DNA from: an uncultured Planctomycetia bacterium
Lineage (GTDB): Bacteria; Omnitrophota; Gorgyraeia; Duberdicusellales; 4484-171
DNA: 64,000 nucleotides
Direction: 5' to 3'
NCBI GenBank assembly: GCA_964635565.1
Contig: CAZWON010000001.1
Span: 71,020 to 135,019 of the forward strand
Below are positions 6,153 through 36,529 of this stretch, piece by piece. Position 1 is the stretch's first letter. Every line of letters starts with the position of its first letter. The notes beneath the pieces are model-generated. The model saw only the letters and a program-made list of their open reading frames with translations, made no database searches and was not told where the DNA came from. A program made the position numbers and the translations under genes.

Positions 6153-7034
6153 GTGATGTTTTCAGGAAGTATTCCTGCTTTAGTTACTCCTTTTAAGAGA
6201 GACGGTAGTATCGATGAAGAACGCCTGCGTTTTCTTATTAACTGGCATATTAAAAACAGAAGTGATGCTATTTTAGTATGTGGAACCACAGGAGAAAGTG
6301 CTACTTTGTCTCACCAGGAGCATAAACATATAGTAAAAATAGCTACAGAAGAAGCAAGAAGACGCATTCCTATTATTGCGGGGGCAGGGTCGAATTCTAC
6401 CGAGGAAGCATTGGATTTGGCACATTTTGCCAAGAAGGTAAAAGCTGATGCCATCTTGGTGATTACTCCTTATTACAATAAGCCAACACAGGAAGGATTG
6501 TACCAGCATTATAAAAAAATATCACGAGAAGTTAAGATACCCCTTATTGTTTACAATGTTCCTTCCCGGACAGGGACTAACATTTTACCACAGACGGTAG
6601 CACGTCTCTATAAAGATTGTAAAACAGTTATTGGAATAAAGGAAGCCAGTGGTTCTTTAGACCAGATAACGAAGCTTATGACTCTTGTGGATAGGAGGTT
6701 TGTTCTTCTTTCAGGAAGTGATGAAATAACCTTACCTATTCTTTCTATAGGAGGTAAAGGTGTAATTTCTGTTGTAGCAAATATAATGCCTCGCCAGACT
6801 CATGATCTTGTTGCAAGTTTCTTAAAAGGAAATATTGAGAAAGCAAGAAAGTTACAACTTTATCTTTACCCCTTAATTAAAATACTTTTTATAGAGACTA
6901 ATCCTATCCCTGTTAAGACAGCTTTAGGTCTTATGGGACTTATTGAGCCAAACTTACGGCTTCCTCTCTATAGGATGAATAAGGAAAACTTTAAAAAACT
7001 TAAGGCAATTATTAAGAAGTACAATCTCAGTTAA
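6153..7034 (+). CDS. dapA: 4-hydroxy-tetrahydrodipicolinate synthase
   Basis: 'ALVTPF...DG.ID', 'GTTGES', the 'YNVPSRTG' motif and the Schiff-base lysine region 'IGIKEASG' are all present. Confidence 0.9.
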   Translation: MMFSGSIPALVTPFKRDGSIDEERLRFLINWHIKNRSDAILVCGTTGESATLSHQEHKHIVKIATEEARRRIPIIAGAGSNSTEEALDLAHFAKKVKADAILVITPYYNKPTQEGLYQHYKKISREVKIPLIVYNVPSRTGTNILPQTVARLYKDCKTVIGIKEASGSLDQITKLMTLVDRRFVLLSGSDEITLPILSIGGKGVISVVANIMPRQTHDLVASFLKGNIEKARKLQLYLYPLIKILFIETNPIPVKTALGLMGLIEPNLRLPLYRMNKENFKKLKAIIKKYNLS

Positions 7035-7067
7035 CCCTTTTTTCTACTAATATAAAATTGATTTCAT

Positions 7068-8459
7068 ATGGAAGATATTAAATTGTCAATAATAATCCCT
7101 GTATATAATGAGATAAATACTGTTTTAGAAATAATAAGATTAGTGAAAGAAGAGAGACATAAAAAAGAGATTATAGTTGTTGATGATTGCTCTACGGATG
7201 GGACACACGAGGTACTAAAACAGATTGAAGAAGAGAACATTAGAGTTTTATTCAATGATGTTAATAGAGGCAAAGGTTATGGGATAAGAAAGGCATTAAA
7301 GTATGTGGCAGGGGATATTGTAATTATTCAAGATGCAGACCTTGAATATTATCCTGATGAGTATGGGATTTTAATAGAAAAAATTATTCAAAATAAAGCG
7401 GACGTTGTTTATGGGAGCAGATTTATAGGGGGTGCACACCGTGTATTTAATTTCTATCATTACATAGGGAACTTGGTTATTAATACAATTGCTAATATTT
7501 TCTTGAATGCCAATTTTACAGATTTAATGACTTGCTATAAAGCATTTAGAAGCGATGTATTGAAGAGTTTAAAACTGGAAGCAAATGGATTTGGGATAGA
7601 AACAGAGATTACTGCAGAGGTTTTTAAAAGAAGATATAGAGTATATGAGGTGCCTATTTCTTATAACGGCAGAACCTATGAAGAGGGGAAGAAAATAAGA
7701 TGGACAGATTTCTTTACGTGTTTGTATTGGCTTCTAAGATCGATAATTAGAGGGGTTGATTTAGGAGAAGACACATTATTGAAGACGATAATTATGAAAA
7801 ACAATAACTGGTGGGTTTATAAAAAAATTGAACCTTTTTTAGGGAAGAAAATATTAGAATTAGGTTCTGGTATAGGAGCAATATCGAAATACCTGGTGAA
7901 AAAAAATAGAAAAGTAACTCTTACTGATATTAATAAAAAATATACCACATATTTAAAAAGAAGATTTGTTGGCAATCCTCACGTAGAAGTTAAGAATATA
8001 GATATTTTAAACATAGATACTGTGTTTTCTGAGGGAGAGTTTGATACTATTATAGGAATAAATATTTTAGAACATATAGAGCACGATATAGAATCTATTA
8101 AGAAATTAAAAAAGGTACTTATTAAAGAAGGAAATCTCATACTATTGGTTCCTGCTCATAAAAGTTTGTTCGGGAAATTGGATAGCAAATTGGGCCATTT
8201 TCGGAGATACTCAAGGGATGAGTTAAAAACCAAGCTTAAAAATGAAGGTTTTTATATAGAAAGAATAGAATTTATGAATTTTTTAGGAGCAGTAGGATGG
8301 TTTATAAATTTCAAACTTTTAAGAAGAGAAAGAATGTCAAAATTAGTAATTCAGATTTTTGATGGGACCATACCGGTTATTGCTTTTATAGAGAGATTTT
8401 TAAAATTTCCTTTTGGACTTTATCTGTTATGTATTGCAAAAAATAAATTAGATTTTTAG
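7068..8459 (+). CDS. fusion protein: N-terminal GT2 polyprenyl-phosphate sugar synthase-like glycosyltransferase (DPM1/ArnC/GtrB-like) + C-terminal class I SAM-dependent methyltransferase domain
   Basis: N-terminus 'LSIIIPVYNE...VVDDCSTDGT...DADLEY' is GT-A/GT2. C-terminus 'ILELGSGIGAIS...VTLTDIN...NILEHIEHD' is the SAM motif I plus post-I acidic residue and motif III. 463 aa total. Confidence 0.75.
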   Translation: MEDIKLSIIIPVYNEINTVLEIIRLVKEERHKKEIIVVDDCSTDGTHEVLKQIEEENIRVLFNDVNRGKGYGIRKALKYVAGDIVIIQDADLEYYPDEYGILIEKIIQNKADVVYGSRFIGGAHRVFNFYHYIGNLVINTIANIFLNANFTDLMTCYKAFRSDVLKSLKLEANGFGIETEITAEVFKRRYRVYEVPISYNGRTYEEGKKIRWTDFFTCLYWLLRSIIRGVDLGEDTLLKTIIMKNNNWWVYKKIEPFLGKKILELGSGIGAISKYLVKKNRKVTLTDINKKYTTYLKRRFVGNPHVEVKNIDILNIDTVFSEGEFDTIIGINILEHIEHDIESIKKLKKVLIKEGNLILLVPAHKSLFGKLDSKLGHFRRYSRDELKTKLKNEGFYIERIEFMNFLGAVGWFINFKLLRRERMSKLVIQIFDGTIPVIAFIERFLKFPFGLYLLCIAKNKLDF

Positions 8460-8699
8460 ATATACTCCTTTCATTTTAAATATTTTTCCCTCTACATAAA
8501 ATATTATAGGCTTTGTTCTTTACCTAGTGATTTCATTCTAAGGTAAAGATAATAAACAATCTAACACGGGAAGAATAAAGAATATACAATTTTCTTGATG
8601 ATAAGAAGCTGTTTGTTATTTTAAATCTATAATTTTATGTTACAATATTTAAAATAATATATTTTACTCATAATAGATGAATTAACTTAATAAAAAGTA

Positions 8700-9580
8700 A
8701 TGAATGAGAAAGAATGTGTATTGTGTGGCTCAACAGAAATAAAAATAATCTTTTCTTCTCCCCTAAATAATACAAAAAAGATAGAACAATTTGGTTTTTC
8801 ACCTACTGTCTCCGATTTTGGTGTTTTTTATAAGCTAGCACAGTGTCAGGAATGCGGAGTGGTATTTTCTTTACTAGATAATCAAGATTTAACTTTATCA
8901 TACTCAGCCTCTAATGATGATTTATATTTAAATCAAGCTTTAGAGAGGACAGTTACTTATAAGCGTATATTGCGAGATATTAAAAAATTTGTTTCTGATA
9001 ATGCTTGTTTTTTAGATGTTGGATGTTCTTATGGATTATTGCTAAAGTTAGCTAAAGAAGTTGGTTCTAAAGTTTATGGAGTTGAGCTAAGCGAAAATGC
9101 TTGCAGATATGCAAGAGAAAAATTAGGGTTAAATGTTGTATGCGCAGATGTAGCAGAGATTAAATTTTCTAATAATTATTTCGATGTAATTACAGCTATA
9201 GAAATAATTGAACATTTAAGTAATCCTAAAAATTTTATACTCCATATGTATAAAATATTAAAACCGGGGGGATATTATATTTAGTGACTCCTAACCTAAG
9301 AAGCCTTTCGGCAAAGATTTTTGGATACCAGTGGTGGTTTTACAGAAGAATGTATTTATATTATTTTTCTGACAGTGCGCTTCAGAATTTTTTAAATAGA
9401 AATGGATTTTTAGTAATATCTGCTAAACCCTATAAGAAAACTTTTAAGATTAATTACATACTGCGTCAACTTTCTAAATCTAAAATAAATAAAATATTTT
9501 ACAATATACTCAATAAAATAGTTAATTTCTTGAGGGTTAGGAACTTATATTTACAGGTAGTTTTGGCGATGTCGTTATGA
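8700..9580 (+). CDS. class I SAM-dependent methyltransferase with N-terminal CxxC..CxxC zinc-ribbon; reading frame interrupted by an apparent -1 frameshift in a G6 homopolymer (9265-9270)
   Basis: ORF 8700..9284 ends '...LKPGGYYI*'. ORF 9284..9580 continues 'VTPNLRSL...' in the -1 frame. Re-reading one G gives 'LKPGGILYLVTPN', the canonical methyltransferase 'LKPGG.L...TPN' post-motif II/III. 'LDVGCSYG' is SAM motif I. Confidence 0.6.
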
Positions 9581-9602
9581 TAGCAAAAAAGATATAGGCA
9601 TA

Positions 9603-10820
9603 TTGATGAATTGGAAACTAGTACGATGGATAGATATTTATATAGGAATACCTCTGGTATATTTAATATTTCTTATAAAGAAAATATTCAGATTATCTAA
9701 CATTTCTTCAGAAGAATATAATAATCTTTTGTTTATTAAATTTTGGGGTATAGGTAATATCATTATGATTTTACCTGCAGCGAGTGCATTAAAGAAGAAG
9801 TATAAAAATGCAAATATAGACTTATTAACTTTAACAAACAATAAGGATGCTTCTCGTTCTGCAGGGATTTTTAGGGATATTTATACTATAGATACAACCC
9901 ATATAGTTAAATTTCTTATTACCTCTATAAGGACATTTAAAATATTGATTAAGAAAGATTATGATGTAATAGTTGACTTTGAACAGTTCGCAAGGTTTTC
10001 AGCAATATGGTGTGCTCTTATAGGAAGAAAAAAAACTGTGGGGTTTAATACTAAAGGGCAACATCGCTTTATATTATATACAAATCCTACTGTCTATAGA
10101 GACGACATTCATATTACAAAATCTTTTTATAGTTTAGTAGAGTCTTTGGGAGTTCTTGCTATAGACGAGATAGAGCCTTTTCCTTTAAACTGCCATGATC
10201 ATTGTATTAGGACGGTAAGAAGCATATTATCTAAGGAAGGAGTTTTTCCTGAAGATATTATAATTATTCTTCATGTAGGAACAAGTAAGAATTTTGCACT
10301 TAGACGCTGGCCCTTTGAGCATTTTGCTGAATTATCTGACAGATTAATAAATAATTTTGACGTAAAGATAATTTTTACAGGATTGACAGAAGAAAAGGTT
10401 TTAATAGAAAGAGTTTTTGCAATGATAAAGAATAAAAAAGGAGCAATTAATCTAAGTGGAAAGTTTAATTTTGAAGAATTTATAGCCTTAATTAGACTAA
10501 GTGACTTAGTTGTCTCAGCTGATACCGCCCCTGTTCATATTGCTACTTCTTTGGGAGTCCCTGTAGTAGGACTTTATGGCCCAAACACCCCCTTTCTATA
10601 TGGACCATGGGGTAAGAAGAGTATATGGTTTTATAGACAATTAGAGTGTGCTCCTTGCATAACAAATTATAATGCTAAAATAAACAAATGTGGGCATCCC
10701 GAAGGTCAAGGGGCATGTATGAGAAAGATTAGCCCAGATGAGGTATTTTTGGGAATAGTTACTAATTACTTTGACGAAAAATCACCTTTTAGGTTGGAGA
10801 AGTTGAAAGTAAATGCGTAG
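9603..10820 (+). CDS. glycosyltransferase family 9 (LPS heptosyltransferase-like), with N-terminal TM segment and Cys-rich C-terminal tail
   Basis: The GT9 donor-binding region 'ADTAPVHIATSLGVPVVGLYGPNTP' matches the RfaF/RfaC-type 'DSGPMHLA..G.P.V.LFGPT'. The C-terminus 'CAPC...KCGHPEGQGAC' is cysteine-rich. Confidence 0.7.
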   Translation: MMNWKLVRWIDIYIGIPLVYLIFLIKKIFRLSNISSEEYNNLLFIKFWGIGNIIMILPAASALKKKYKNANIDLLTLTNNKDASRSAGIFRDIYTIDTTHIVKFLITSIRTFKILIKKDYDVIVDFEQFARFSAIWCALIGRKKTVGFNTKGQHRFILYTNPTVYRDDIHITKSFYSLVESLGVLAIDEIEPFPLNCHDHCIRTVRSILSKEGVFPEDIIIILHVGTSKNFALRRWPFEHFAELSDRLINNFDVKIIFTGLTEEKVLIERVFAMIKNKKGAINLSGKFNFEEFIALIRLSDLVVSADTAPVHIATSLGVPVVGLYGPNTPFLYGPWGKKSIWFYRQLECAPCITNYNAKINKCGHPEGQGACMRKISPDEVFLGIVTNYFDEKSPFRLEKLKVNA

Positions 10821-11877
10821 ATTGATAGGATTAGCAAAGAATATACTCGTTAGTAATTTTACCGATTTAAGGTATCCCTATAGATTTACTTATATTTTAA
10901 CCTACCGATGTAATCTTAGATGTAATATGTGTAATATTTGGCAAGAACATAAGGAAGAAGAGCTATCCGTCGCTCAGATAAAGAAGTTTTTTAAAAATTT
11001 TTGCAAATTTTCGTGGATTAATGTAAGTGGGGGAGAAATATTTTTAAGAGAAGATTTGTTAGATATTTTTGATATTATTCTCACAACTTGCAAAGATCTG
11101 TATCTTTTAGATTTTCCTACGAATGGTTTCCAGACCAAACTTATTCTTGAGGTAATAAACAGGTTGTTAGTTAATTATAAGATACCCAAGATATTAGTCA
11201 CTATCAGTTTAGATGGTCCGCAAAAGTTACATGATCAGATACGGGGAGTTGAGGGTTCTTGGGATAGAGCTGTGGAAACTTTCAGGCAATTACGTAAATT
11301 AAGAAGTGCAAGGTTTAATGTATTTTTCGGCACTACCTTACAGCCAGCGAATATAGGAAAATTTGATGAGACAGTTAAATCTGTAGAAGAAAAAATTGGT
11401 AATATCCGTTATAATGACTTCCATGTAAATTTAATTCAGTATTCCCCTCATTATTATAAAAATATAGATACATCAGATTCTAATGATTATGATAAATTAT
11501 GGCCTCAGTTAGAAAGAATTATTAGAAGACGTAAGATTTTTTTGTTTAGCCCTATTGGTTTTCTTGAATATGAATATCAGAAATTAGCCAGAATTTATTT
11601 ATCAGAAAAAAAGACGCCTATTACTTGTCAGGCTTTTTCCGCATCTTTTTTTATGGATCCAGAGGGTAATATTTTTCCTTGTAGTATATATAATAAGTCT
11701 ATAGGTAATATCGTTGACTTTGATTATGATATAAATAAGATGTGGGATACTGTTTCTAGATATAGAATAAGAGAAGAGATTCGCAAGCAAAAGTGCCCTC
11801 AATGTTGGACACCTTGTGAAGCATATCAAAGTATTTTGGCTAATTTATTTGTTGTCTTTAAAAGGGGTAGACTATGA
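10813..11877 (+). CDS. radical SAM enzyme with C-terminal SPASM/twitch-like Cys-rich domain
   Basis: Radical-SAM cluster 'YRCNLRCNMCNIW' (CxxxCxxC). Glycine-rich 'SGGEIFL' SAM-binding motif. C-terminal Cys cluster 'CQAF..FPCS...KCPQCWTPCEAY'. Confidence 0.8.
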   Translation: MRRLIGLAKNILVSNFTDLRYPYRFTYILTYRCNLRCNMCNIWQEHKEEELSVAQIKKFFKNFCKFSWINVSGGEIFLREDLLDIFDIILTTCKDLYLLDFPTNGFQTKLILEVINRLLVNYKIPKILVTISLDGPQKLHDQIRGVEGSWDRAVETFRQLRKLRSARFNVFFGTTLQPANIGKFDETVKSVEEKIGNIRYNDFHVNLIQYSPHYYKNIDTSDSNDYDKLWPQLERIIRRRKIFLFSPIGFLEYEYQKLARIYLSEKKTPITCQAFSASFFMDPEGNIFPCSIYNKSIGNIVDFDYDINKMWDTVSRYRIREEIRKQKCPQCWTPCEAYQSILANLFVVFKRGRL

Positions 11878-12974
11878 TTAGAAAAGTCTATATTGATTTT
11901 ATAAAAAATAAAGTTGTTGAAGGAAAGTGGGATTGGTTTTTTAAAAGATTCTGGCAATACTTTATTATTCATATTTCTTTTATTGCGGGTCGGCCTTTCT
12001 GTGGTCCGATTTTAGGTACTTTTGTTGTTAATTATCGATGTAACTATAAGTGTAAAATGTGTGATTTGCCATTGAGAGATAAGTTTATCCAAAAGCAGGG
12101 GTTAAAAGAATTCTCAACCTTACAGTTAAAAAAAATTCTTAAGGAATTTGCAAGCTTGGGGACAGCGGGTATAGGTTTTACAGGAGGAGAGCCACTTTTA
12201 CGAGAAGATATATTTGAGCTTATGAAGTATTCAAAGGAATTAGGTATGATTACTCACTTAAATACTAATGGGTTTTTCCTTGATAGCGAAAATATCAAAA
12301 GGCTTCTATATGCTAATGTTGACTCTATAAATATTTCTTTAGATGGAGCCTATGCTTCTACTCACGATGCAATTAGAGGTTATCGGGGGGCATTTGATAG
12401 GGTAGTTTATGCTGTAGAGTGTATTGATTTCATGCGAAAGAAAATGGGTGTTCCTATACGCGTGAAAGTAGTGACTGTAATAGGTAAAGATAATATCGAT
12501 GAGATACCCGATTTGTTTAAACTAGCTCATAGTTTAAAAGTAGACTGTATTGAGTTTATCCCACAACAGCCTTTTTCTGTTTTGACAGATGATACTCCTG
12601 TGAATTTTGATAATATTTTTTTAGAAAAGATAGATACAGTGGTTGATTATATTTTGAAGGAGGGGAAGAAGATAGTAAGGGTAGAAAATTCACCTCGTCA
12701 TTTAAAATTATTTAAGAATTCTTTTGGGGGTGAAAAGTCACCCCTTATTTGTTTTGCGGGATATAATTCTTATGCTGTGGATTGCTATGGTCAAATTTTT
12801 CCCTGTATGCCATGGGTTAATTGGGGGAAATCCGTGGGAAATGTAAAAGAGAGTTCCCTTAAGAAATTTTGGTATTCAGCAATGTATAATAAGATACGGC
12901 GTGATATTTCAAAGTGCAGAGATTGTTATCTGAATTGTCAGGCAGAGTTAAATATTTTGTTTAATATAATTTAA
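11874..12974 (+). CDS. radical SAM enzyme with C-terminal SPASM-like domain (paralog of the upstream gene), with a hydrophobic N-terminal extension
   Basis: 'YRCNYKCKMCDL' (CxxxCxxC). 'TGGEPLL'. C-terminal 'CFAGYNSYAVDCYGQIFPC...CRDCYLNCQ'. Start overlaps upstream stop (ATGA). Confidence 0.8.
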   Translation: MIRKVYIDFIKNKVVEGKWDWFFKRFWQYFIIHISFIAGRPFCGPILGTFVVNYRCNYKCKMCDLPLRDKFIQKQGLKEFSTLQLKKILKEFASLGTAGIGFTGGEPLLREDIFELMKYSKELGMITHLNTNGFFLDSENIKRLLYANVDSINISLDGAYASTHDAIRGYRGAFDRVVYAVECIDFMRKKMGVPIRVKVVTVIGKDNIDEIPDLFKLAHSLKVDCIEFIPQQPFSVLTDDTPVNFDNIFLEKIDTVVDYILKEGKKIVRVENSPRHLKLFKNSFGGEKSPLICFAGYNSYAVDCYGQIFPCMPWVNWGKSVGNVKESSLKKFWYSAMYNKIRRDISKCRDCYLNCQAELNILFNII

Positions 12975-13012
12975 AAAAGAGTTTAATTATTTTATAGAGG
13001 TTAAATTAATTA

Positions 13013-14821
13013 ATGAAGAATAAAAAAAACCTTTTTCTTCGTTCTACAATACCATTACCATTCTGTATTATAAGTGCAGTTTTTTTATATTTTCTTGCTT
13101 TAAGCTGGTTAAAATGGGGCAACCCTGTTGTCGATACTTTTAGAGACCAGTGGGTAGCTTATAACTTAACTGTAGGAAAAACTTTATATAAAGATATTTT
13201 TTACCATTATGGTTTTTTAGCGCCTTATTCTATTTCTTTTTTGTATAAAATATTTGGTGTAAATATAATATACTCAGTTTTTTTAGGGATATTTATTACT
13301 GGTTTTTCCTGTTATTTTCTTTATAAACTTTCTCGCCTTTTTCTTAATAGGGCATTTTCTACAGTTCTTTTATTAAACTTTCTTTTAGTTTTTGCTTTTG
13401 GATGTTATTGTTCTAACTGTATTTTTAATTTTATATTACCTTATAGTTTTTCTTCTACTTTTCTTATAATGTTTATTCTTTCTTCACTATACTTCTATAT
13501 TAAATTTATAAGAAAAAAGCACTATAGATATTTGGTCTTTTGGGCGCTTTCTATATATTTTGTTTTTTTATCTCGTGTAGATTTTGGTGTTTTTATTTGG
13601 TTAGTATTTGTTGCGATTTTTATAGGATGTATCCCCAAAGAAAGAAAATCGAAGGTTATTATATATATGTTTATTCCTTTTTTGATGAGTTTATTGTCTT
13701 ACTGGCTATTTTTATATCTTAATAATGCCTTTTTTTATTTCCGTGAATCTATAATTAATATGATTTCTTTCTGTTTAGAAGGAGGGAATAAGTTTGATTA
13801 TATTATCTCAGGGTTTGATAATCTTTCTTATAATTTAAAAAATATTATTATCTCTTTTTTTTCTCAGTTTATAATAGCTTTTCTATTTTATTTAATGAGT
13901 GTTGTAATACATATTTTCCTTAAAAGAACAACAATAAAATTATTTCCTCTTTTATTATATACTATATTAGGAATAGTTTCGTTTAGAGTTACTTTTCTTT
14001 TTGTCGGAGTTGTTAACTTTTTCCTTCAATACAGATTAATACCTCTAGTGCTTCTTGGGGGAATAATGATATATATTTTTAGGTTATTTTTTAGTAAAGA
14101 AAAAGAGAAGATTTCTTCATATTTAGTTTTATTTGTTATTTCACTTTTGCTTATATTAAGGATAATATTTCTTGCTTCTCCTAATGGGTATGGTTTTTTT
14201 CTTTTAGTTCCCAGTTTAGTCTGTTATTATATTTTCTTTAAAGATATATGTTTTCCTTTGTTTACCTTTATCATAAGAGTTGCAATTAATAAAAATGTAA
14301 AACGCTATTATCTGTTTTCTGTTTCTATTTTCTTTGTTTTACTGTCTTTGTTATTTGCCAGATTTAATTATGAGAGTTATAGTATGAAAAAATGCTCTAT
14401 TTTTACTCCGAGGGGAAATTTGTATTTTTTCTGCACGCCCTGCACGCAGAGATTCTGGGAAACGGTTTATTTTTTAAGAAAGCATACTGCTAAGAATGCA
14501 AAAGTTGTTGTTTTCCCCGAAGGAATAGGAATAAATTTTTTTTCTCAAAGAGATAACCCTTTACGGTATCATACTTTTCTTCCTCCTATAGTCAGAATTG
14601 TTACGGAAAATAAAATAATAAAGAACTTAAATAAATACAAAATAGATTATATAATAATACTTTCCAGAGCTACATATGAATATGGATATCCTTTTTTTGG
14701 TATTCACTATGGGGAAAATATTTATCATTGGATATTAAATAATTATGAACTTATTAAAGTCTTTGGTCCTTATCCTTTTACTTCTTTAGAATTTGGGGTG
14801 GCGATATTTAAGAGAAAATAA
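13013..14821 (+). CDS. polytopic (~13 TM) integral membrane protein with C-terminal soluble domain; GT-C-fold glycosyltransferase-like (ArnT/PMT/oligosaccharyltransferase-type) candidate
   Basis: Translation is very hydrophobic with many predicted helices. The first extracytoplasmic loop after TM1 carries an acidic 'VVDTFRDQW' motif, the usual position of the GT-C catalytic D/E. A ~130 aa non-hydrophobic C-terminal domain follows. Fold assignment is inference. Confidence 0.45.
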   Translation: MKNKKNLFLRSTIPLPFCIISAVFLYFLALSWLKWGNPVVDTFRDQWVAYNLTVGKTLYKDIFYHYGFLAPYSISFLYKIFGVNIIYSVFLGIFITGFSCYFLYKLSRLFLNRAFSTVLLLNFLLVFAFGCYCSNCIFNFILPYSFSSTFLIMFILSSLYFYIKFIRKKHYRYLVFWALSIYFVFLSRVDFGVFIWLVFVAIFIGCIPKERKSKVIIYMFIPFLMSLLSYWLFLYLNNAFFYFRESIINMISFCLEGGNKFDYIISGFDNLSYNLKNIIISFFSQFIIAFLFYLMSVVIHIFLKRTTIKLFPLLLYTILGIVSFRVTFLFVGVVNFFLQYRLIPLVLLGGIMIYIFRLFFSKEKEKISSYLVLFVISLLLILRIIFLASPNGYGFFLLVPSLVCYYIFFKDICFPLFTFIIRVAINKNVKRYYLFSVSIFFVLLSLLFARFNYESYSMKKCSIFTPRGNLYFFCTPCTQRFWETVYFLRKHTAKNAKVVVFPEGIGINFFSQRDNPLRYHTFLPPIVRIVTENKIIKNLNKYKIDYIIILSRATYEYGYPFFGIHYGENIYHWILNNYELIKVFGPYPFTSLEFGVAIFKRK

Positions 14822-14854
14822 AATTTGTTATAATATTAAGAGAAAGGGGTAAAG

Positions 14855-15580
14855 ATGTTAAGAGCAGGGATAAGTGGTATTTGTGGGAGAATGGGAAGGA
14901 GAATTCTTAATTTGAGTAAAAAAGATAAAGATATTGAAGTTGTTATAGGGTTAGAAAAAACTGGCCATAAGGATGTAGGAAATATAGTTGAAGGGGTAAA
15001 AGTCACAGATAAATTAATAGAATTAGAAAGGTGCGATTGCCTCATTGAATTTTCTACGCCCACTGCTACTTTAGAACATCTTAGATATTTAGTTACATTA
15101 AAAAAAACAGCAGTAGTAGGGACAACAGGTTTTAGTGACGATGAGGCTGATGAGGTAAAAAGAATAGCAGAAAAGATTCCTATAGTATTTTCTCCTAATA
15201 TGAGCATTGGTGTTAACTTAGTTTTTCGTCTGGTGAAAGAAGCAGCAAAAGTATTAAAAGAGTATGAGGTTTATATTGAAGAGGCTCATCATATTCATAA
15301 AAAAGATGCCCCTAGCGGAACCGCCAAAAAAATAGCAAATATTATAAATAGTGAGGGTTTCAGCATAAAGACAGAAGATATTGTTTCTATTCGTGAAGAT
15401 GAGATTGTAGGTGACCATAGCGTTATCTTTAAGAGCACATTAGATGAGATTGAACTTTCCCATTCCGCAAAGACACGTGATATATTTGCTCAAGGAGCAA
15501 TTGTAGCAGCAAAATGGATAAAAGATAAAAAGAAAGGCCTTTACTCTATGGAGGATGTACTTTTTGGAAGGGATTCATAA
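14855..15580 (+). CDS. dapB: 4-hydroxy-tetrahydrodipicolinate reductase
   Basis: N-terminal Rossmann 'GISGICGRMGRR'. Signature 'EAHHIHKKDAPSGTA'. ~240 aa. Confidence 0.85.
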   Translation: MLRAGISGICGRMGRRILNLSKKDKDIEVVIGLEKTGHKDVGNIVEGVKVTDKLIELERCDCLIEFSTPTATLEHLRYLVTLKKTAVVGTTGFSDDEADEVKRIAEKIPIVFSPNMSIGVNLVFRLVKEAAKVLKEYEVYIEEAHHIHKKDAPSGTAKKIANIINSEGFSIKTEDIVSIREDEIVGDHSVIFKSTLDEIELSHSAKTRDIFAQGAIVAAKWIKDKKKGLYSMEDVLFGRDS

Positions 15581-24206: not shown

Positions 24207-24848
24207 ATGATTGATTTAATGTTAAAGAGTTTTGGCTTTATTGCCAAAGGGGGATGGTTGATGTGGCCGTTGATGGCTTGTTCAATAGTCTCTTTAGCAA
24301 TTATTATTGAACGGTTTTTATTTTTTGCGAGTTTTAAAAAATATAATAGCCAAAAAATAATAGAAAAAATTTTGAAATGTTTCTCTGAAGGGAATATAAA
24401 AGAAGCCATAAGCTTATGCGAGAAAAATCCTTATTATCTTACCAATATTATTAAAGCAGGAATATACCATTATAACTATCCTAAAGGGGTTATAAAAGAA
24501 GCAATGGAAAATTCTTCTTTGTATGAAATACCTAAGTTAGAAAAAAATCTGAATTTTTTAAGTACCTTAGCACATGTTTCTCCTCTTATAGGACTTTTGG
24601 GAACAGTTGTGGGTTTGGTGAAGAGTTTTTATGCCATTGAGCAGAAAGCTGTTACTGCAGGAATGATTAATCCTTCTGATATTGCTGGGGGGATATGGGA
24701 GGCTTTGCTTACTACCGTAGCAGGATTATGTATTGCCATTATTAGTTATCTTGCCTATAATTATTTTGTCCATAAGGTTAATATGTATGTATTAGAGGCA
24801 GAAAGAGCTTCTACAGAACTCTTAGAAGTTACTTCAGGAGCAAAGTAA
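24207..24848 (+). CDS. MotA/TolQ/ExbB family proton-channel protein
   Basis: 'GGWLMWPLMACSIVSLAIIIERF' N-terminal TM. C-terminal TM2/TM3 'LGTVVGLV...GIWEALLTT'. ~210 aa. Confidence 0.8.
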   Translation: MIDLMLKSFGFIAKGGWLMWPLMACSIVSLAIIIERFLFFASFKKYNSQKIIEKILKCFSEGNIKEAISLCEKNPYYLTNIIKAGIYHYNYPKGVIKEAMENSSLYEIPKLEKNLNFLSTLAHVSPLIGLLGTVVGLVKSFYAIEQKAVTAGMINPSDIAGGIWEALLTTVAGLCIAIISYLAYNYFVHKVNMYVLEAERASTELLEVTSGAK

Positions 24849-25247
24849 ATGAGATTTAAAAGGCATATAAATATTGAGGCAGGGTTGAAACAATTAGAGA
24901 TTACACCTCTTATAGATTGTGTATTTTTATTACTGATTTTTTTTATGCTCACTTCTAATTTTGTAGTTTCTCCTGGTATTAATATAAGATTACCAAAATC
25001 TTCTGTATCAGAAGTTGTGCGGACAAAAACAGTTATGATTACTATTTCTTCAGAGGACCTTATATACGTAGAAGGGAAGATATTTACTTCTTCTGAACTG
25101 GAGCAGTATCTAAAGAAGGCAGATTGCAAGTCTATATTTATAAAGGCAGATAGAGATTCAAGTTTAGGAGCAGTAGTGGGAATATGGGATATATGTAAGC
25201 GCGTAGGAATAGATAAGATAGGGATTGCCACGATTTCTCGGGAATGA
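24849..25247 (+). CDS. ExbD/TolR family biopolymer transport protein
   Basis: 'EITPLIDCVFLLLIFFMLTS' single TM plus periplasmic domain. ~130 aa. Immediately follows the TolQ/ExbB-like gene. Confidence 0.75.
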   Translation: MRFKRHINIEAGLKQLEITPLIDCVFLLLIFFMLTSNFVVSPGINIRLPKSSVSEVVRTKTVMITISSEDLIYVEGKIFTSSELEQYLKKADCKSIFIKADRDSSLGAVVGIWDICKRVGIDKIGIATISRE

Positions 25248-25307
25248 AGCTTATTGATTATTAAAAAATTCTGGACATCTATGGCTATTTAATGGTAAAA
25301 TTAGATT

Positions 25308-25505
25308 ATGATTACAGAAATAGGGATTGTTGCAGGAGAGATATGGGATTTATTAGAAAAGTCAAAAGAAACTTCTTTAAAGAATATTATAAAAAAGATT
25401 GATAAATCACCAAAGCTTATTTTTATGAGCATAGGGTGGTTGGCTCGGGAAGGGCATATTATATTAAAAAAAGAAAATAATGACTATAAAGTCTGTTTAC
25501 GGTAG
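25308..25505 (+). CDS. small hypothetical protein, possible winged-helix fold
   Basis: 65 aa ORF with no strong motif. Weak call. Confidence 0.25.
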   Translation: MITEIGIVAGEIWDLLEKSKETSLKNIIKKIDKSPKLIFMSIGWLAREGHIILKKENNDYKVCLR

Positions 25506-25839
25506 AAAAAAAGGTGTAGTCCTTGTTGTGGTAATAGGAGTGATGCTTACAATTGTTTTTCTTTGCTTAGCTGTTCTTTATGTTATGTCTCAACAGGCAC
25601 GCATAGCAGAGCATAAAATTAGAAGGTTACGAGCTTACTATGCAGCTATGGCAGGTGTGGTGTATGCTTTTGACCAGTTAAGGCAAGGTAATGACCCTTC
25701 GGGAACACCAGCTTTTCGTATTGGCAGTGGCATTAGAGGATATCCTTTCTTAGGTTTACCTGTGAATATTAATGTTGTTCATGGAGGGGGAGTAGATAAT
25801 ACAGATAAAATAGAGGTAACGGTAGATTATAATCTTTAG
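25480..25839 (+). CDS. PilX-like type IV pilus minor-pilin/assembly protein (PilX_N-type N-terminus)
   Basis: N-terminus 'KKGVVLVVVIGVMLTIVFLCLAVLYVMSQQARIA' resembles the PilX N-domain 'G.ALV..L..L...T.LGLA'. It lies upstream of the pilus assembly operon. Confidence 0.4.
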   Translation: MTIKSVYGRKKGVVLVVVIGVMLTIVFLCLAVLYVMSQQARIAEHKIRRLRAYYAAMAGVVYAFDQLRQGNDPSGTPAFRIGSGIRGYPFLGLPVNINVVHGGGVDNTDKIEVTVDYNL

Positions 25840-26073
25840 AATTCCTGCCTTCTTACATTATCAAGATACCTTTCTACAAACAATTTTAGAAATATAACTT
25901 TTTAATAATGTCCTTATAAGCGTAATTGAATATTCTAATTTTATTATTGGGGAGAATTATTATGCAGAACGCTCTTTTAAGACCGCATTTAACTTTGATT
26001 ATACAACATATAGTGTAAGGAAAGAAATGTCACAATATATAGAAATAAAGTAACAAATTATAATAAATTATAC

Positions 26074-26107
26074 TTGACATAAGTAAATAAAAATAATTAA
26101 ATATAAT
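26074..26107 (+). promoter_or_regulatory. possible sigma70-type promoter for the pilus operon (TTGACA at 26074-26079, AT-rich -10 candidates 26097-26107)
   Basis: Perfect -35 hexamer 'TTGACA' ~50 nt upstream of the HTH gene start. Several TAAAT/ATAAT-like hexamers sit 17-22 nt downstream. Specificity is low in this AT-rich DNA. Confidence 0.25.
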
Positions 26108-26126
26108 TGTATTTAAATTATAAAAA

Positions 26127-26315
26127 ATGAAAGAATCGAGAACAGTACGATTAATGAGTATTAGTGAATTAGCAGAATATTTGGGTCTTAGAAGACAGAC
26201 CATTTATAATTGGTTGCATCAGAAGAAAATTTCAGGGATAAAAATCGGTAAGGTATGGCGTTTTGACCGTAGAGAAATAGAGAAATGGCTTAAAAACTGT
26301 AGTAAAAATAAATGA
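26127..26315 (+). CDS. small helix-turn-helix DNA-binding protein (excisionase/HTH_17-like)
   Basis: 'MSISELAEYLGLRRQTIYNWL...GKVWRFDRREIEKWL' is typical of the MerR-superfamily excisionase-type HTH. Its stop overlaps the pilM start (ATGA). Confidence 0.6.
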   Translation: MKESRTVRLMSISELAEYLGLRRQTIYNWLHQKKISGIKIGKVWRFDRREIEKWLKNCSKNK

Positions 26316-27796
26316 GTAAAGAATATCTGGGAATATATATAGGGGAGAGCTTCGTTGTTTGTGTACGTTTAGAAGATAAAAACTTAGTAGCTTTTACAAA
26401 ACTTAATATTTCATCATTAGAGGAAGATGTAAAAGAGGGTGTTGTTAAAAGAGATGTATTATGGGAGGCTTTAATAAATAAAGTGGTAAGAGAAGTAGGA
26501 GGAGGTAAGAATAATGAGGCGTTTGTTTCTTTAGAAGATAAGGAGTTTATTTACCGCTGTTTTGATATGCCTCTAATGAGTAAAAGAGAGGTAGAGGCAT
26601 CTATTAAGTATGAAATAGAAAAATATATCCCTTTTAGTATAGAGGATTTAGTTTGGGATTACGATTATGTTAAGATTCCCAAAGATAAAAAAATAAATTT
26701 ATCTTTTATAGGAATAAAGAAAATTACTTTAGAAAGATATCTCTTCTTACTTAAAGGTGCCAATATAAGGATATTAAATATTGAACCTTCTGCAGTGGCG
26801 CTTATGAGAGTGGTGAGGTCTCTAAAAATTGCAAAGAAGATAAATAATTTTATTATCCTTGATTTCTCTCCTGATGCCTCTTATATTACTTTTTTTTATA
26901 ATGATTTACCCATATTTAATAGGTTTTTAGGTAGTTACGGAAAAGAGAAAGAGAATGCTGTTGATAAAATAATAGATGAGGTAAGAATTTCTATTCAGTA
27001 TTTTAGAAGAGAATTTAGAAATTATTCTTTAGATAAGTTGTTCATTATTGGAGACTTGGATACGCAAGATATCCTTTCTTCGATAAAAAAAGAGATAGAT
27101 GTAGATTCTTTACTTGTCACTACGGAGGATATTCTAAATATTAAAGAAGCAAATGTGGGACATCTCAAAGCTTATGCAGTGGCAACTTCTTTTTTCCTTC
27201 CTGCACGATTTAAACCTACCTTTTATGGTGAACAGAAGTTATCTGTTGAAAAAATTGTTACAACAGAACTGCTTGCTTTTAATTATGTACTTTTAGGAGC
27301 AGTAATATTGATTGGTATTTTAGGTTGTTTCTTCTTTTATGCTTTGTTAGATAACAATCTTTCTGTAAAGCGCTACCGTATAAGAAAGGAAGTAAAAAAA
27401 ATAGTTCTTCCTCCTAGTGTAAAAGATAAGTCAATAGAGGAGATTAAAAGGTATATAAAAGGCAAAAAGAGCCAGATGGAAAATTTGAGAAATATTTTTG
27501 GAAAGGTTAAAGAGATTACTCCTTTTTTAGATATTATGCCTGATATTATCCCTCAAGGTTTATGGCTTGAGGATTTTTCTTTGAGAAAAGATAAGGGGAG
27601 ATTGAGTTTATCTATTACCGGTTATGTATTTCTTGCCTCTAAAGAAGAAGAGACAAAGTCATTGGATAATTTTATTTATTCCCTTAGAAATAATGAAACT
27701 ATTAAATCATATTTTTCTCAGCTGGAAATTATTTCTATTAAAAGAAAGAAAGTAGAGGGGTATGATTCTCTCAGCTTTTCTGTGAAGTTAAAATAG
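26312..27796 (+). CDS. type IV pilus assembly protein PilM fused to a PilN-like TM + periplasmic domain
   Basis: Actin-like PilM motifs 'EASIKYEIEKYIPFSIEDLVWDYDYV' and 'ILNIEPSAVALMR'. Then one TM helix 'LLAFNYVLLGAVILIGILGCFFFYAL' and a ~150 aa C-terminal domain, as in PilN. 494 aa. Confidence 0.7.
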   Translation: MSKEYLGIYIGESFVVCVRLEDKNLVAFTKLNISSLEEDVKEGVVKRDVLWEALINKVVREVGGGKNNEAFVSLEDKEFIYRCFDMPLMSKREVEASIKYEIEKYIPFSIEDLVWDYDYVKIPKDKKINLSFIGIKKITLERYLFLLKGANIRILNIEPSAVALMRVVRSLKIAKKINNFIILDFSPDASYITFFYNDLPIFNRFLGSYGKEKENAVDKIIDEVRISIQYFRREFRNYSLDKLFIIGDLDTQDILSSIKKEIDVDSLLVTTEDILNIKEANVGHLKAYAVATSFFLPARFKPTFYGEQKLSVEKIVTTELLAFNYVLLGAVILIGILGCFFFYALLDNNLSVKRYRIRKEVKKIVLPPSVKDKSIEEIKRYIKGKKSQMENLRNIFGKVKEITPFLDIMPDIIPQGLWLEDFSLRKDKGRLSLSITGYVFLASKEEETKSLDNFIYSLRNNETIKSYFSQLEIISIKRKKVEGYDSLSFSVKLK

Positions 27797-27803
27797 AAAG
27801 CAG

Positions 27804-28280
27804 ATGGATTCACTAATAAAGCATAAAAATATAATTGCAGTTTTTCTTATCAGTATAATTTTTGTTTTTATAGCTCGGCAGATTCATTCAAGTTTTATAC
27901 AGAAATATAGAAAGCTGGATAAAGAAAAAAAAGAATTTGAAGAAAAAAAAGTTTTAGCTAATACGTTATCAAATATTGAGGAAGAGTTTAATAATCTTAA
28001 AAAGAGAGTATTTAAAGGAGACATCTTTGATTTTAAGAAGGTAATAGAGAATAACGCTGCTAAGAGAAAAATTATTGTTGATTCTCTTATTCCTAAAGAA
28101 TTAGAGAATAGGAAGGAATATAAGAAGGTAAGATTTATCCTTGAGCTTAAAACGGATTATGATTCTTTGAGAAAGTTTGTTAGCAACTTAGAATCAACCG
28201 GGTGTGTAGATATAAGATATTTAGAGAGAAGAGGGTTCCATAAATATCTTTTAGAGGTGGTTGTAATATTGAAAGAATAG
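27804..28280 (+). CDS. PilO-like inner-membrane pilus assembly protein
   Basis: N-terminal TM 'IIAVFLISIIFVFIA', a coiled-coil region and a C-terminal alpha/beta domain. Position between pilMN and pilP/Q. Confidence 0.45.
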   Translation: MDSLIKHKNIIAVFLISIIFVFIARQIHSSFIQKYRKLDKEKKEFEEKKVLANTLSNIEEEFNNLKKRVFKGDIFDFKKVIENNAAKRKIIVDSLIPKELENRKEYKKVRFILELKTDYDSLRKFVSNLESTGCVDIRYLERRGFHKYLLEVVVILKE

Positions 28281-28282
28281 AT

Positions 28283-28699
28283 ATGCGAGTATATATAATA
28301 GCTTTAGGAACAGGGCTGCTTTTATATCTGCCCTATGTAGGATTAACAGAGGAGGAAAGTTTTAAAAGAGACCTTTTTACTCCTCCTTTCAGGAAGATTG
28401 AAAAGAAGACAATGAAGGTTAAGGAACGTCCTTTTAAAAAACCTACTCCTATAAAGAGGGAATTTATTAAGAAGCAAAAAGTTAAACCCCAATATTTAGA
28501 CTTGGAGGTAGAAGGTATAATTTTAAGCGATAATCTCAAACATGCTATAATTGATGGACATCTTTATAAAGAGGGAGATATTGTAGAAAATAAAGACGCT
28601 AAAATAGTAAAGATAGATAAAGGGAGAATTTTTCTTATGTTTAGTGGTGTTTTGTATGAAGTGCCTATTGGAAAAAATATAGAGGAAAAATATAGATGA
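28283..28699 (+). CDS. PilP-like pilus assembly protein
   Basis: Signal/TM segment, proline/lysine-rich linker, C-terminal beta domain 'GIILSDNLKHAIIDGHLYKEGDIV'. Position directly before the secretin. Confidence 0.4.
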   Translation: MRVYIIALGTGLLLYLPYVGLTEEESFKRDLFTPPFRKIEKKTMKVKERPFKKPTPIKREFIKKQKVKPQYLDLEVEGIILSDNLKHAIIDGHLYKEGDIVENKDAKIVKIDKGRIFLMFSGVLYEVPIGKNIEEKYR

Positions 28700-30210
28700 G
28701 AGATAAAAGGAGGGAAAAAATGAGATTTATAATATTATTGATATTTATTATCTTACCTTTTAATTTATTTTGTTTTGACTATGAAATTGATAATATATAT
28801 GGAGAGTATCTTATTTCCGATATTAAACATAATATCTCTATGGATTTAGAAAAAGCTCCTTTAATGGAAGTTTTAAAGGCTCTCTCTCAGCAGAGTGGAC
28901 TTAATTTTGTTTCTACAGAAGCAGTAAAAGATAGAGAGATTACTCTTTATCTTGATAATGTTCCTTTAAAAGAGGCAATGGATATAATTTTTAAAGCCAA
29001 CGGTCTTAGTTATGACTATTTCCCTCAGGCAAAGATTTTTGTTGTTAAAGAGATAGGTAAGCCTAAAATAGAATTGAAGACAAAAGTATACACTTTAAAA
29101 TATATTAGATTAGCTTCTTCTCGGTTTCAACAGGAAGTAAATGATTTATTGAATTTAGAAGGAACAGAAGGAGAGAGTGGAGAGATTTCAAGTACTTCTA
29201 CAGAAAGTACTAGCAAAGAGAAAGATATAAAAGATGTTATAGAAAAAGTATTGACTGACAATGGCAAAGTAATAGAAGATACTTATACTAATTCTTTAGT
29301 AGTAGTAGATGTTCCTTCCCAGTTTGTTATAATTGATAAGGTAATTGAACAGTTGGATAAACCACAGCCTCGAGTAATGATTGAAGTGGAGATGTTGGAT
29401 GTTTCCAAGCGTTTAATAGACCAGTTGGGCATAAATTATGAGAATGGTTTTACTATGACTCTTACAGGAGGCAGTTTTAGTACACCGTTTCCTTTTAGGA
29501 AAGGATTTTTAGAAAATCATTCCTCTAGTGAGGTTGAATATACAGCTACTCCTTCTACTTTAAGCCTTACTTCTTTAAGTGCTATGCTTAAGTTTTTTTC
29601 TAAAGACACCTCTACACGCTTTTTGGCGAGGCCAAAAATATTAACATTGTCTAATGAGACTGCTGAAGTTAATTTATCTACCAATGCTGCCATAGGAGTA
29701 ACCACTACTACCTCTGATACTGGTACTACTCAGGAAGTAGAGCGAGCATACTTAGGCACAAAGTTAAGAGTTACTCCCCATATTAATCTTGCCACAAAAG
29801 AAATTACGATGGTAGTAGAGGTGTACAATCGAGAAGCCACAGACAGTGGTTTAAGCATTTCAGGGCTAACTACAGGGAATTTAAAAGACCCAGAGGAGAG
29901 AGGAACAAAGTCTATCGTTCGCCTTAAAGATGGGCAGACTCTTCTTATTGGTGGTCTTATTCGGCAAGATAAGACAGAGACTTTTGAAAAAGTTCCCTTT
30001 TTAGGTGATATACCGTTGTTAGGGGCAATGTTTAGATATAAAAACAAGGATAATACTGAAAGGGAACTGCTTGTATTTTTGACACCCCATATTATAGAAA
30101 ATGAAGGGGATAGCTTTGCTTTTTCTAAGTTGAATAAGTTAAGAGAGCAGAGTTTTTATTCTCGCAGAGAAGCAGTTACCGATGCTTTAGATAGTTTTTC
30201 TAAGAGGTAA
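28696..30210 (+). CDS. type IV pilus / T2SS secretin (PilQ/GspD family)
   Basis: Signal peptide. Secretin C-domain 'LIGGLIRQDKTETFEKVPFLGDIPLLGAMFRYKNK...LLVFLTPHII'. Ser/Thr-rich low-complexity linkers. Confidence 0.85.
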   Translation: MRDKRREKMRFIILLIFIILPFNLFCFDYEIDNIYGEYLISDIKHNISMDLEKAPLMEVLKALSQQSGLNFVSTEAVKDREITLYLDNVPLKEAMDIIFKANGLSYDYFPQAKIFVVKEIGKPKIELKTKVYTLKYIRLASSRFQQEVNDLLNLEGTEGESGEISSTSTESTSKEKDIKDVIEKVLTDNGKVIEDTYTNSLVVVDVPSQFVIIDKVIEQLDKPQPRVMIEVEMLDVSKRLIDQLGINYENGFTMTLTGGSFSTPFPFRKGFLENHSSSEVEYTATPSTLSLTSLSAMLKFFSKDTSTRFLARPKILTLSNETAEVNLSTNAAIGVTTTTSDTGTTQEVERAYLGTKLRVTPHINLATKEITMVVEVYNREATDSGLSISGLTTGNLKDPEERGTKSIVRLKDGQTLLIGGLIRQDKTETFEKVPFLGDIPLLGAMFRYKNKDNTERELLVFLTPHIIENEGDSFAFSKLNKLREQSFYSRREAVTDALDSFSKR

Positions 30211-30214
30211 TAGT

Positions 30215-36523: not shown

Positions 36524-36529
36524 TTGACT

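Follow-up and report, generated by a model that had tools for sequence, protein, structure and literature searches.

A GT2-methyltransferase fusion and a GT-C membrane protein as the probable ends of a polyprenyl-phosphate sugar relay in an Omnitrophota gene island

Does a glycosyltransferase that carries its own methyltransferase supply a lipid-linked sugar to the membrane protein encoded a few genes downstream, and is that sugar methylated? The question is raised by a 64,000-nucleotide stretch of DNA, hereafter the window, from an uncultured Planctomycetia bacterium placed in the Omnitrophota (assembly GCA_964635565.1, contig CAZWON010000001.1, positions 71,020 to 135,019 of the forward strand). 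Between dapA (6153-7034) and dapB (14855-15580) it holds a six-gene island that begins with a glycosyltransferase of family GT2 fused to a methyltransferase and ends with a protein of 13 transmembrane (TM) helices. The original prediction, made from the letters alone, was that the GT2 makes a polyprenyl-phosphate sugar and that the membrane protein, as a GT-C enzyme, transfers it on the periplasmic face. Both open reading frames (ORFs), 7068-8459 and 13013-14821, are present as that prediction gave them, and they are conserved, real genes, with homologs numbering in the thousands for the fusion and 42 for the membrane protein. We favor, with moderate confidence, the view that this is an envelope-glycan modification island of an Omnitrophota-type diderm and that its two ends form a relay resembling ArnC/ArnT or GtrB/GtrC. 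The parts that would form the relay are:

7068..7757, + strand: GT2 (GT-A fold) domain of the fusion, residues 1-230 (Pfam, NCBIfam, PDB, Foldseek)
7761..8459, + strand: class I S-adenosylmethionine (SAM)-dependent methyltransferase domain of the fusion, residues 232-463 (Pfam, AlphaFold2 (AF2), Foldseek)
13013..14821, + strand: predicted GT-C fold glycosyltransferase, 602 residues, 13 TM helices (AF2, Foldseek, Pfam matches of its homologs)

To place the GT2 domain, we compared it with families of assigned function and with solved structures. The reading frame at 7068-8459 does encode a GT2 with a fused methyltransferase, as predicted, but it spans the whole 463-residue fusion and not the GT2 domain alone. 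Pfam Glycos_transf_2 matches residues 7-167 (E 1.7e-35), and an AF2 model of the fusion (pLDDT 88.9) divides it into a GT2 domain at about residues 1-230 and a methyltransferase at about 232-463. The four best NCBIfam matches, over about residues 5-205, are all polyprenyl-phosphate sugar synthases. AglJ is the best family (E 6.3e-40, 137 bits against a cut-off of 325); the haloarchaeal dolichyl-phosphate hexose transferase (E 2.7e-20), PpgS (residues 8-199, E 3.9e-17, 62 bits against 370) and ArnC (E 6.9e-16, 58 bits against 529) also match. Because all of these scores lie below the equivalog cut-offs, we regard the domain as a distinct subfamily. Its top PDB sequence match is the Pyrococcus dolichyl-phosphate mannose synthase (DPMS) 5mlz (E 4.5e-19, about 26% identity, residues 2-219), with three ArnC entries ranking next and the alignments to 5mlz and ArnC spanning residues 2-220; a Foldseek search of the PDB with the AF2 model places ArnC or DPMS in the first 11 positions, with GtrB lower. 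The DXD motif, D89-A-D91, lies within the family signature IQDADLEYYPDEY and is conserved. Among 31 fusion homologs there is little or no variation at Q88, at D91 or in the motif GR..Y.EGKK, and this conserved GR.Y.EGKK segment aligns with the R.RGESK loop of DPMS. The best matches by NCBIfam, PDB sequence and PDB fold thus agree on a GT2 of the DPM1/ArnC/GtrB type rather than a processive synthase, as predicted, and from these comparisons of sequence and modeled fold the domain is very probably a polyprenyl-phosphate sugar synthase.

PgaC, TuaG and EpsE, which are processive or Leloir GT2 enzymes, align in NCBIfam just to residues 5-110, the nucleotide-binding half of the domain. We rejected a processive polysaccharide synthase on this partial match to PgaC and TuaG, on the absence of the Q(Q/R)xRW motif, and on the count of zero TM helices. 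A related idea is that the GT2 elongates or terminates a glycan on a polyprenyl-diphosphate carrier and that the methyltransferase caps the chain, in the manner of WbdD or WsaE. Glycosyltransferase-methyltransferase fusions with such a capping role exist in those two proteins, the fusion has no TM helices, and an ABC-2 transporter gene lies near one locus at which the two domains are split (L021; loci used for comparison are given by such handles). Against this, all of the top sequence and fold matches are polyprenyl-phosphate monosaccharide synthases that align over the full domain, the Q(Q/R)xRW motif is lacking here as well, and the neighbors are GT-C enzymes and not Wzm/Wzt or polymerization genes; we therefore consider chain capping very improbable.

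The membrane protein is the other end of the putative relay. Its 602 residues comprise a lysine-rich N-terminus (KNKKN), 13 hydrophobic helices between residues 14 and 457, and an alpha/beta C-terminal domain (residues 458-602), predicted to be periplasmic and mapping to 14384-14818. The motif VVDTFRDQW (residues 39-47) lies between TM1 (residues 14-31) and the first juxtamembrane helix. All of 38 homologs keep D41 of this motif (codon 13133-13135), which lies in the first periplasmic loop, and nearly all keep R44. The topology that had been expected, with many TM helices, this motif in the first external loop and a soluble C-terminal domain, is the one we find. Neither Pfam nor NCBIfam gave any match to the window protein itself, and PDB sequence searches with it, as a single sequence or as a 38-sequence profile, returned nothing; because these direct searches are empty, its classing as GT-C is by fold and by the Pfam matches of its homologs only. 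The fold is clear. AF2 run on the 38-sequence alignment gave a model with pLDDT 92 and pTM 0.92, and GT-C enzymes fill the first 20 places of a Foldseek search of the PDB, among them STT3 of the oligosaccharyltransferase complex, the C-mannosyltransferase DPY19, AglB, ArnT and PglB (E 3.7e-7 to 3.2e-3, probability 1.00, TM-score 0.39-0.51; E 1.7e-4 for ArnT 5f15), whereas transporters first appear at E 0.03 with probability below 0.35. This comparison, which the original prediction had proposed, bears it out. PF13231 (PMT_2) is matched by 29 of the 38 homologs (best E 4.2e-11), and NCBI names some homologs ArnT-family or GT39. We conclude from the model and from the homologs that the protein is almost certainly a GT-C enzyme. 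The same GT-C fold matches and PMT_2 matches of homologs rule out a Wzy protein, an O-antigen polymerase, an O-antigen ligase or a transporter. Three loci (L088:1347-6736, L093:7285-10886, L109:6359-11695) carry two or three paralogs of the family in tandem, which suggests that acceptor or donor specificity has diversified.

Whether the two proteins belong together can be judged from the company that each keeps in other genomes. On the GT-C side we considered the 23 non-redundant loci that have 4 kb or more of flanking DNA, and in 11 of them a DPM1-like GT2 gene lies no more than 6 kb from the GT-C gene. A sister genome (L126) has the same island, with the fusion directly adjoining the GT-C ortholog; in L086 the fusion is directly upstream of the ortholog, and in L118 and L125 a GT2 - methyltransferase - GT2 set adjoins it. 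A standalone GT2 of the fusion's subfamily lies near the GT-C gene in L085, L109 and L114, and other DPM1-like GT2 genes do so in L002, L003, L004, L092, L121 and L123. The GT-C orthologs beside these other GT2 genes show 24-45% identity (L002, L003 and L004), and the company varies: a 316-residue GT2 with an LPG_synthase_TM protein, a sulfotransferase and a GT4 in the same dapA-dapB slot (L002), a 224-residue GT2 with sugar-activation genes (L003), and a GT2 with an LPG_synthase_TM protein and YfhO (L004). In the window, the GT2 profile finds no further match in the remaining ~56 kb.

The fusion side gives a similar picture. Among ten multi-TM proteins that directly adjoin the fusion in ten genomes, six match a GT-C-clan Pfam family (three PMT_2, two YfhO, one GT87), and of 24 near neighbors at least 10 belong to the GT-C clan; since members such as the window protein escape Pfam, these neighbor counts are lower bounds. 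GT-C proteins also adjoin standalone GT2 genes of the subfamily, and in Spirulina (L063) the neighbor is a true PMT + PMT_4TMC protein. The predicted partnering of GT2 and GT-C thus holds far above chance, both within the GT-C family and in other phyla, and we consider it probable that this GT2 and the 602-residue GT-C form a donor-transferase pair. Two others of the ten adjoining proteins are DUF92 proteins: in two bins, one labeled Acidobacteriota and one Thermoanaerobaculia, a 520-550-residue DUF92 membrane protein adjoins the fusion (L006:8449-10014 and L014:201-1856). DUF92 is the family of the plant phytyl-phosphate kinase VTE6, which makes this a further tie to polyprenyl-phosphate metabolism.

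The fusion had been called unusual, and here our results differ from the prediction, as it is a large conserved family in Omnitrophota, Acidobacteriota, Planctomycetota, Elusimicrobiota and other phyla. In a word-indexed search all 8000 scored candidates were significant, so the matches number at least 8000. The best 120 of them, at 47-85% identity, are full-length fusions of 444-493 residues with one exception of 359; their hosts include Omnitrophota, Elusimicrobiota, KSB1, Pacebacteria and Chitinispirillaceae, and one already bears the NCBI name 'bifunctional glycosyltransferase/class I SAM-dependent methyltransferase'. When species-representative genomes were scanned, the fusion turned up in Acidobacteriota, Planctomycetota, Verrucomicrobiota, Myxococcota, Actinomycetota and others. 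The scan gave 31 fused loci (two of them the window itself and its duplicate, contig L001), 7 loci at which a strong methyltransferase match lies outside the anchor GT2 gene, and, at 44 of the 82 loci scanned, a standalone GT2 of about 230 residues of the same subfamily. At some loci the two domains are adjacent genes, in the order GT2 then methyltransferase (L021, L028, L040) or methyltransferase then GT2 (L042, L069). The fused form together with adjacent genes in both orders argues for a functional link between GT2 and methyltransferase. Our literature searches found no experimental work on the fusion family. In many fusion loci (L009, L011, L013, L026 and L035 among them) a second, standalone GT2 paralog of the same subfamily (about 232-255 residues) lies within 2-3 kb of the fusion, which suggests two lipid-linked sugars, one methylated and one not. 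This paralog is the sole robust extra partner of the fusion in a neighbor clustering that is contaminated by antisense ORFs in high-GC genomes.

What the fused methyltransferase acts on is the harder part of the question. The Pfam class I models Methyltransf_11, 12, 25 and 23 match residues 258-398 (E 1e-9 to 1e-10), and the domain has the features of its class: a Rossmann fold, a GxGxG motif I (LELGSGIG, residues 263-270) and the acidic D287 after strand 2. Eight residues concerned with SAM binding (E264, G266, G268, G270, D287, D312, and the E335 and H336 of an LEH motif) are invariant or nearly so among the 31 homologs from several phyla. The AF2 model shows the Rossmann fold with no TM helix and, at the end of the methyltransferase, a hydrophobic helical hairpin (residues 405-444). 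Its Foldseek neighbors (ECA1738, TleD, RebM, phosphoethanolamine methyltransferases and a farnesyl pyrophosphate (FPP) methyltransferase) are generic small-molecule enzymes, and its family forms 413 clusters at 50% identity (E<=1e-30), with most of the best 150 members standalone proteins of 230-250 residues. From its sequence the domain looks catalytically competent.

Since the SAM-binding residues are invariant across phyla, we argue that the domain catalyzes a reaction. Its fused and split forms bind it specifically to the GT2, and the substrate held nearest to it would be the GT2 product. These points lead us to suggest, tentatively and at somewhat less than even confidence, that the methyl group goes onto the lipid-linked sugar. 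A competing explanation accepts the relay and has the methyltransferase act on a nucleotide sugar, the polyprenyl chain or another cytoplasmic substrate, or serve mainly as a docking or oligomerization module in place of the TM helices of ArnC and GtrB. The domain does sit where ArnC, GtrB and DPMS have TM helices, in a fusion that has no TM helix of its own, and it has a hydrophobic hairpin; its fold neighbors include prenyl C-methyltransferases (TleD and the FPP methyltransferase) and lipid methyltransferases, and the 44 standalone GT2 genes of the subfamily have no methyltransferase nearby. Set against the invariant SAM-binding residues and the specific tie to the GT2, we think this explanation rather unlikely, and less likely than methylation of the lipid-linked sugar.

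Taken together, the proposed sequence of events would run as follows. On the cytoplasmic face, as family membership suggests, the GT2 domain would move one sugar from a nucleotide sugar to polyprenyl (undecaprenyl) phosphate, the fusion probably being seated at the membrane through an amphipathic interface helix (residues 212-227, 7701-7748), after which the chain enters the methyltransferase, and through the hydrophobic hairpin of the fused domain. In the least certain step, the methyltransferase may then methylate the lipid-linked sugar before it is flipped. A transporter encoded elsewhere would flip the product, and the 13-TM GT-C would hand the sugar to a periplasmic acceptor by means of the loop that carries the invariant Asp41.

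Several observations weigh against such a relay. The GT2 domain falls under every NCBIfam equivalog cut-off (AglJ, ArnC, PpgS), and the AF2 model of the fusion shows none of the C-terminal TM helices of ArnC, GtrB and the Pyrococcus furiosus enzyme (PfDPMS). In 12 of the 23 GT-C loci there is no GT2 within 6 kb, and one ortholog island, on the contig P0004, has the GT-C, two methyltransferases, a GT9 and one radical SAM gene with no GT2. Structural neighbors of the methyltransferase do not reveal the substrate that is methylated, as they act on diverse small molecules that include prenyl groups. No ORF for a flippase (GtrA, ArnE/F, MATE or LPG_synthase_TM) was found on either strand of 7068-14821, and none recurs beside the fusion in other phyla, where small multi-TM neighbors gave no GtrA-like match. 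Finally, we found no biochemical data for any member of the fusion family in the literature. As to the TM helices, GtrB, ArnC and PfDPMS have them at the C-terminus, and PpgS and human DPM1 lack them. As to flippases, related loci have a candidate beside the GT2: LPG_synthase_TM proteins (L002, L004) and a DedA/VTT protein (L086). The latter locus has a second DPM1-like GT2 and the DedA/VTT-domain protein (L086:4157-5697) adjoining its fusion and GT-C pair. DedA proteins have been implicated in polyprenyl-phosphate transport, and this one is a possible flippase for the carrier lipid.

How does the putative relay compare with known ones? ArnC is the top fold match of the GT2 domain, the GT-C protein matches ArnT, and its homologs are annotated ArnT-family or PMT_2. 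In the Arn pathway, ArnD deformylates the lipid-linked sugar before flipping, a precedent for tailoring on the carrier. The window differs in that its GT2 lacks TM helices, in that a fused methyltransferase stands in place of Arn's separate deformylase, and in that the island has no ArnE/F-type flippase gene. Synthases without TM helices do occur in Actinobacteria, where the short DPM1-like enzymes of PpgS (Rv3631)/Rv3779 and Ppm1/PMT supply GT-C transferases. PpgS matches our GT2 domain, and a GT2 of the subfamily adjoins a true PMT in Spirulina; however, those systems have no methyltransferase, and the window GT2 is no PpgS equivalog. The P. furiosus DPMS (5mlz) and archaeal AglJ are, respectively, the best solved-structure sequence match and the best NCBIfam family, but the fusion lacks the four C-terminal TM helices of PfDPMS. 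For methylation on the carrier the precedent is AglP of Haloferax volcanii, a SAM methyltransferase that acts on a dolichyl-phosphate-bound glycan; AglP differs in being a separate protein with a tetrasaccharide substrate in N-glycosylation. Lipid-linked sugars are tailored before flipping by deformylation, deacetylation and epimerization; we know of no described methylated polyprenyl-phosphate monosaccharide that serves as a donor for GT-C enzymes. The GtrA/GtrB/GtrC systems likewise encode a polyprenyl-phosphate-sugar synthase together with a GT-C transferase, and auxiliary enzymes can alter the sugar (PMC11127046). Three-component systems have been reviewed, including the pentofuranose systems of Kelly et al. 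2024, with epimerases altering the lipid-linked sugar (PMC11127046). By comparison, the window island is missing the flippase (GtrA or MATE), its synthase is fused to a methyltransferase, and its GT-C comes from a small family with no Pfam model of its own. By analogy, then, the relay would be of the ArnC/ArnT, GtrB/GtrC or PpgS/Rv3779 type and so a known kind of system. It differs from these in its TM-less, methyltransferase-fused synthase, in having no linked flippase, in its Pfam-less GT-C family, and in the GT9 - radical SAM - radical SAM module located with it.

That module and a further methyltransferase gene occupy the interior of the island:

8700..9597, + strand: pseudogene of a second class I methyltransferase with an N-terminal Cys4 motif (tblastn against the L085 homolog)
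9603..10820, + strand: GT9-family (heptosyltransferase-like) glycosyltransferase with a hydrophobic N-terminal segment (Pfam Glyco_transf_9)
10813..11877, + strand: radical SAM/SPASM enzyme 1, CX3CX2C motif CNLRCNMC (Pfam)
11874..12974, + strand: radical SAM/SPASM enzyme 2, CX3CX2C motif CNYKCKMC (Pfam)

The second methyltransferase had been proposed to provide further tailoring, a role that does not survive inspection, as the gene is a decaying pseudogene with two frameshifts. The ORFs 8700-9284 and 9284-9580 are parts of one gene: tblastn with the intact 301-residue homolog (L085:1058-1963) aligns the window copy in three frames at 52-59% identity, with the first frameshift in a G6 run at 9266-9271 (KPGG / ILYLVTPN), the second near 9545-9556, and the ancestral stop at 9595-9597. 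The sister genome keeps only about 600 bp of remnants (L126:2186-2794). The gene appears to be on its way out in this lineage; a phase-variable switch at the G run or an assembly error is less likely.

The GT9 gene and both radical SAM genes, in contrast to this pseudogene, are intact. Glyco_transf_9 matches the GT9 at E 1.4e-29, and in NCBIfam the protein scores 99 bits against heptosyltransferase II (cut-off 134.6) and 95 bits against heptosyltransferase III (cut-off 170), so that it does not reach the equivalog level of a lipopolysaccharide (LPS) heptosyltransferase (WaaC/WaaF/WaaQ) there. Each radical SAM protein has the CX3CX2C cluster motif and a C-terminal SPASM domain (Radical_SAM 1.3e-12 and SPASM 1.6e-4 for the first, 5.5e-23 and 1.2e-10 for the second). 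NCBIfam has no equivalog for the first and only generic matches, below cut-off, for the second, and we found no precursor-peptide ORF in the island. The order GT9, first radical SAM, second radical SAM is kept in L085 and L126 (Omnitrophota) and in L127, L128, L129 and L130 (window 9603-12974; L127:8787-12189; L128:8803-12164; L129:6779-10174; L130:4082-7479; L085:3474-6873). Outside Omnitrophota the module occurs, at about 48-50% identity, in the cultured Geobacter sp. AOG1 (L127), in Nitrospirota, in a Desulfobacteraceae bin and on a further metagenome contig. In Nitrospirota and Desulfobacterota homologs of the first radical SAM enzyme are always 3' of a GT9 and paired with the second.

The original prediction had the radical SAM pair provide further tailoring, which for the lipid-linked sugar finds no support. 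Our species-representative scan found the module at none of the other fusion loci of other phyla, and because those loci carry no module, the radical SAM enzymes track the GT-C side and not the fusion. They belong instead with the GT9 in a separate module that follows GT-C or TPR membrane proteins. The three genes, or the first radical SAM gene, accompany the GT-C family in eight loci (L085, L090, L099, L103, L105, L113, L120, L124); in L090 the radical SAM pair adjoins the GT-C and the contig ends upstream, before any position for a GT9. In other phyla the genes flanking the module encode a B12-binding radical SAM protein and proteins of 540-650 residues, the latter with 6-10 N-terminal TM helices, C-terminal TPR repeats and a first loop in which a DD pair is invariant. 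The architecture of these TPR proteins recalls TMTC-type GT-C enzymes, and homology to the window GT-C is suggestive; it is not established by hhalign (probability 12.6%) or by PMT_2, which matches 1 of 12.

These associations bear on another possibility, that the GT-C is served by the module or by a donor from elsewhere and that the fusion is part of another pathway and is only housed in the same island. The eight loci just listed would fit, as would the DD-bearing multi-TM and TPR proteins that flank the module in Geobacter, Nitrospirota and Desulfobacterota, the P0004 island without a GT2, and the differing content of the dapA-dapB island among genomes. However, a GT-C requires a lipid-linked donor, which neither GT9 nor radical SAM enzymes are known to supply, and the fusion family adjoins GT-C genes in phyla that lack the module. 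The association of module and GT-C is also compatible with the relay, since the module could build the acceptor. We thus regard two separate pathways as unlikely, and suppose that the enzymes of the module probably share their acceptor or product with the GT-C.

As to that acceptor, the window has LpxB, a GFO/IDH/MocA oxidoreductase and then an MsbA-like ATP-binding cassette transporter at 35438-39318. Because of LpxB and the MsbA-like transporter, we reason that the organism makes lipid A, and these two genes together with the GT9 gene and the ArnT-like relatives make LPS core or lipid A a plausible acceptor; an envelope protein or another glycan is an equally open choice. In L099:96-4691, L103:1849-6748 and L105:3047-6550 a radical SAM gene, a homolog of the first radical SAM enzyme and a 214-residue CDP-alcohol phosphatidyltransferase precede the GT-C, a hint that the acceptor may be the head group of a phospholipid. 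In L118 and L125 an inositol-monophosphatase-family gene and an epimerase lie beside the GT2 - methyltransferase - GT2 set.

Synthase and GT-C pairs that glycosylate outside the cytoplasm underlie polymyxin resistance (Arn), O-antigen serotype conversion (Gtr), teichoic-acid decoration and mycobacterial wall assembly. It is conceivable, though we would not put it higher than that, that the fusion family makes a polyprenyl-phosphate-linked O-methylated monosaccharide, such as methyl-mannose or methyl-glucose, and that the GT9 - radical SAM - radical SAM module is an undescribed pathway of envelope or protein modification. If so, the methyl-sugars in the envelopes of Omnitrophota, Acidobacteriota, Planctomycetota, Elusimicrobiota and Verrucomicrobiota would be put in place outside the cytoplasm with their methyl groups already on; a widespread synthase with its own methyltransferase would be a new tailoring step on the lipid carrier and, in phyla with next to no glycobiology, a simple way of making methylated surface sugars. 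The fusion, at 463 residues, is of soluble size and well predicted and hence directly testable in vitro, and the recurring neighborhood of GT9, two radical SAM genes and GT-C is a second lead.

The island sits in an AT-rich window (about 32% GC) whose genes are almost all on the + strand, and homologs of the proteins studied come chiefly from Candidatus Omnitrophota metagenome bins. It interrupts a run of housekeeping genes, in the order argH, lysA, dapF, dapA, island, dapB, aminotransferase, folK, panC, aspartate dehydrogenase and uvrA. Packing is tight, with overlaps of 4-8 bp from the GT9 through both radical SAM genes and gaps of 33-38 bp at dapA/fusion, second radical SAM/GT-C and GT-C/dapB; the exception is a 240-bp AT-rich gap 3' of the fusion gene. 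Scans for promoter-like sites (53, with 49.8 expected in shuffled sequence) and terminator-like sites (8, with 4.2 +/- 2.6 expected) gave no clear excess and were not used. In Omnitrophota the dapA-dapB (or dapB-dapL) slot holds a glycan island of variable content, in which the GT-C is retained and its partners swap (window 7035-14854 compared with L002:5813-11816 and the P0004 contig). GT2, LPG_synthase_TM, sulfotransferase and GT4 genes accompany the GT-C in the slot of L002; in that of P0004 the companions are a methyltransferase, GT9, radical SAM and methyltransferase, with no GT2. Farther downstream, LpxB and the GFO/IDH/MocA oxidoreductase are the only sizeable minus-strand genes of the window, and the GC skew dips locally there, at 36-38 kb. 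Also downstream of the island, 24207-33191 holds a MotA/ExbB-family gene, a PilM-like gene, a secretin, a T2SSE ATPase and a T2SSF platform protein, and is a type IV pilus or type II secretion cluster.

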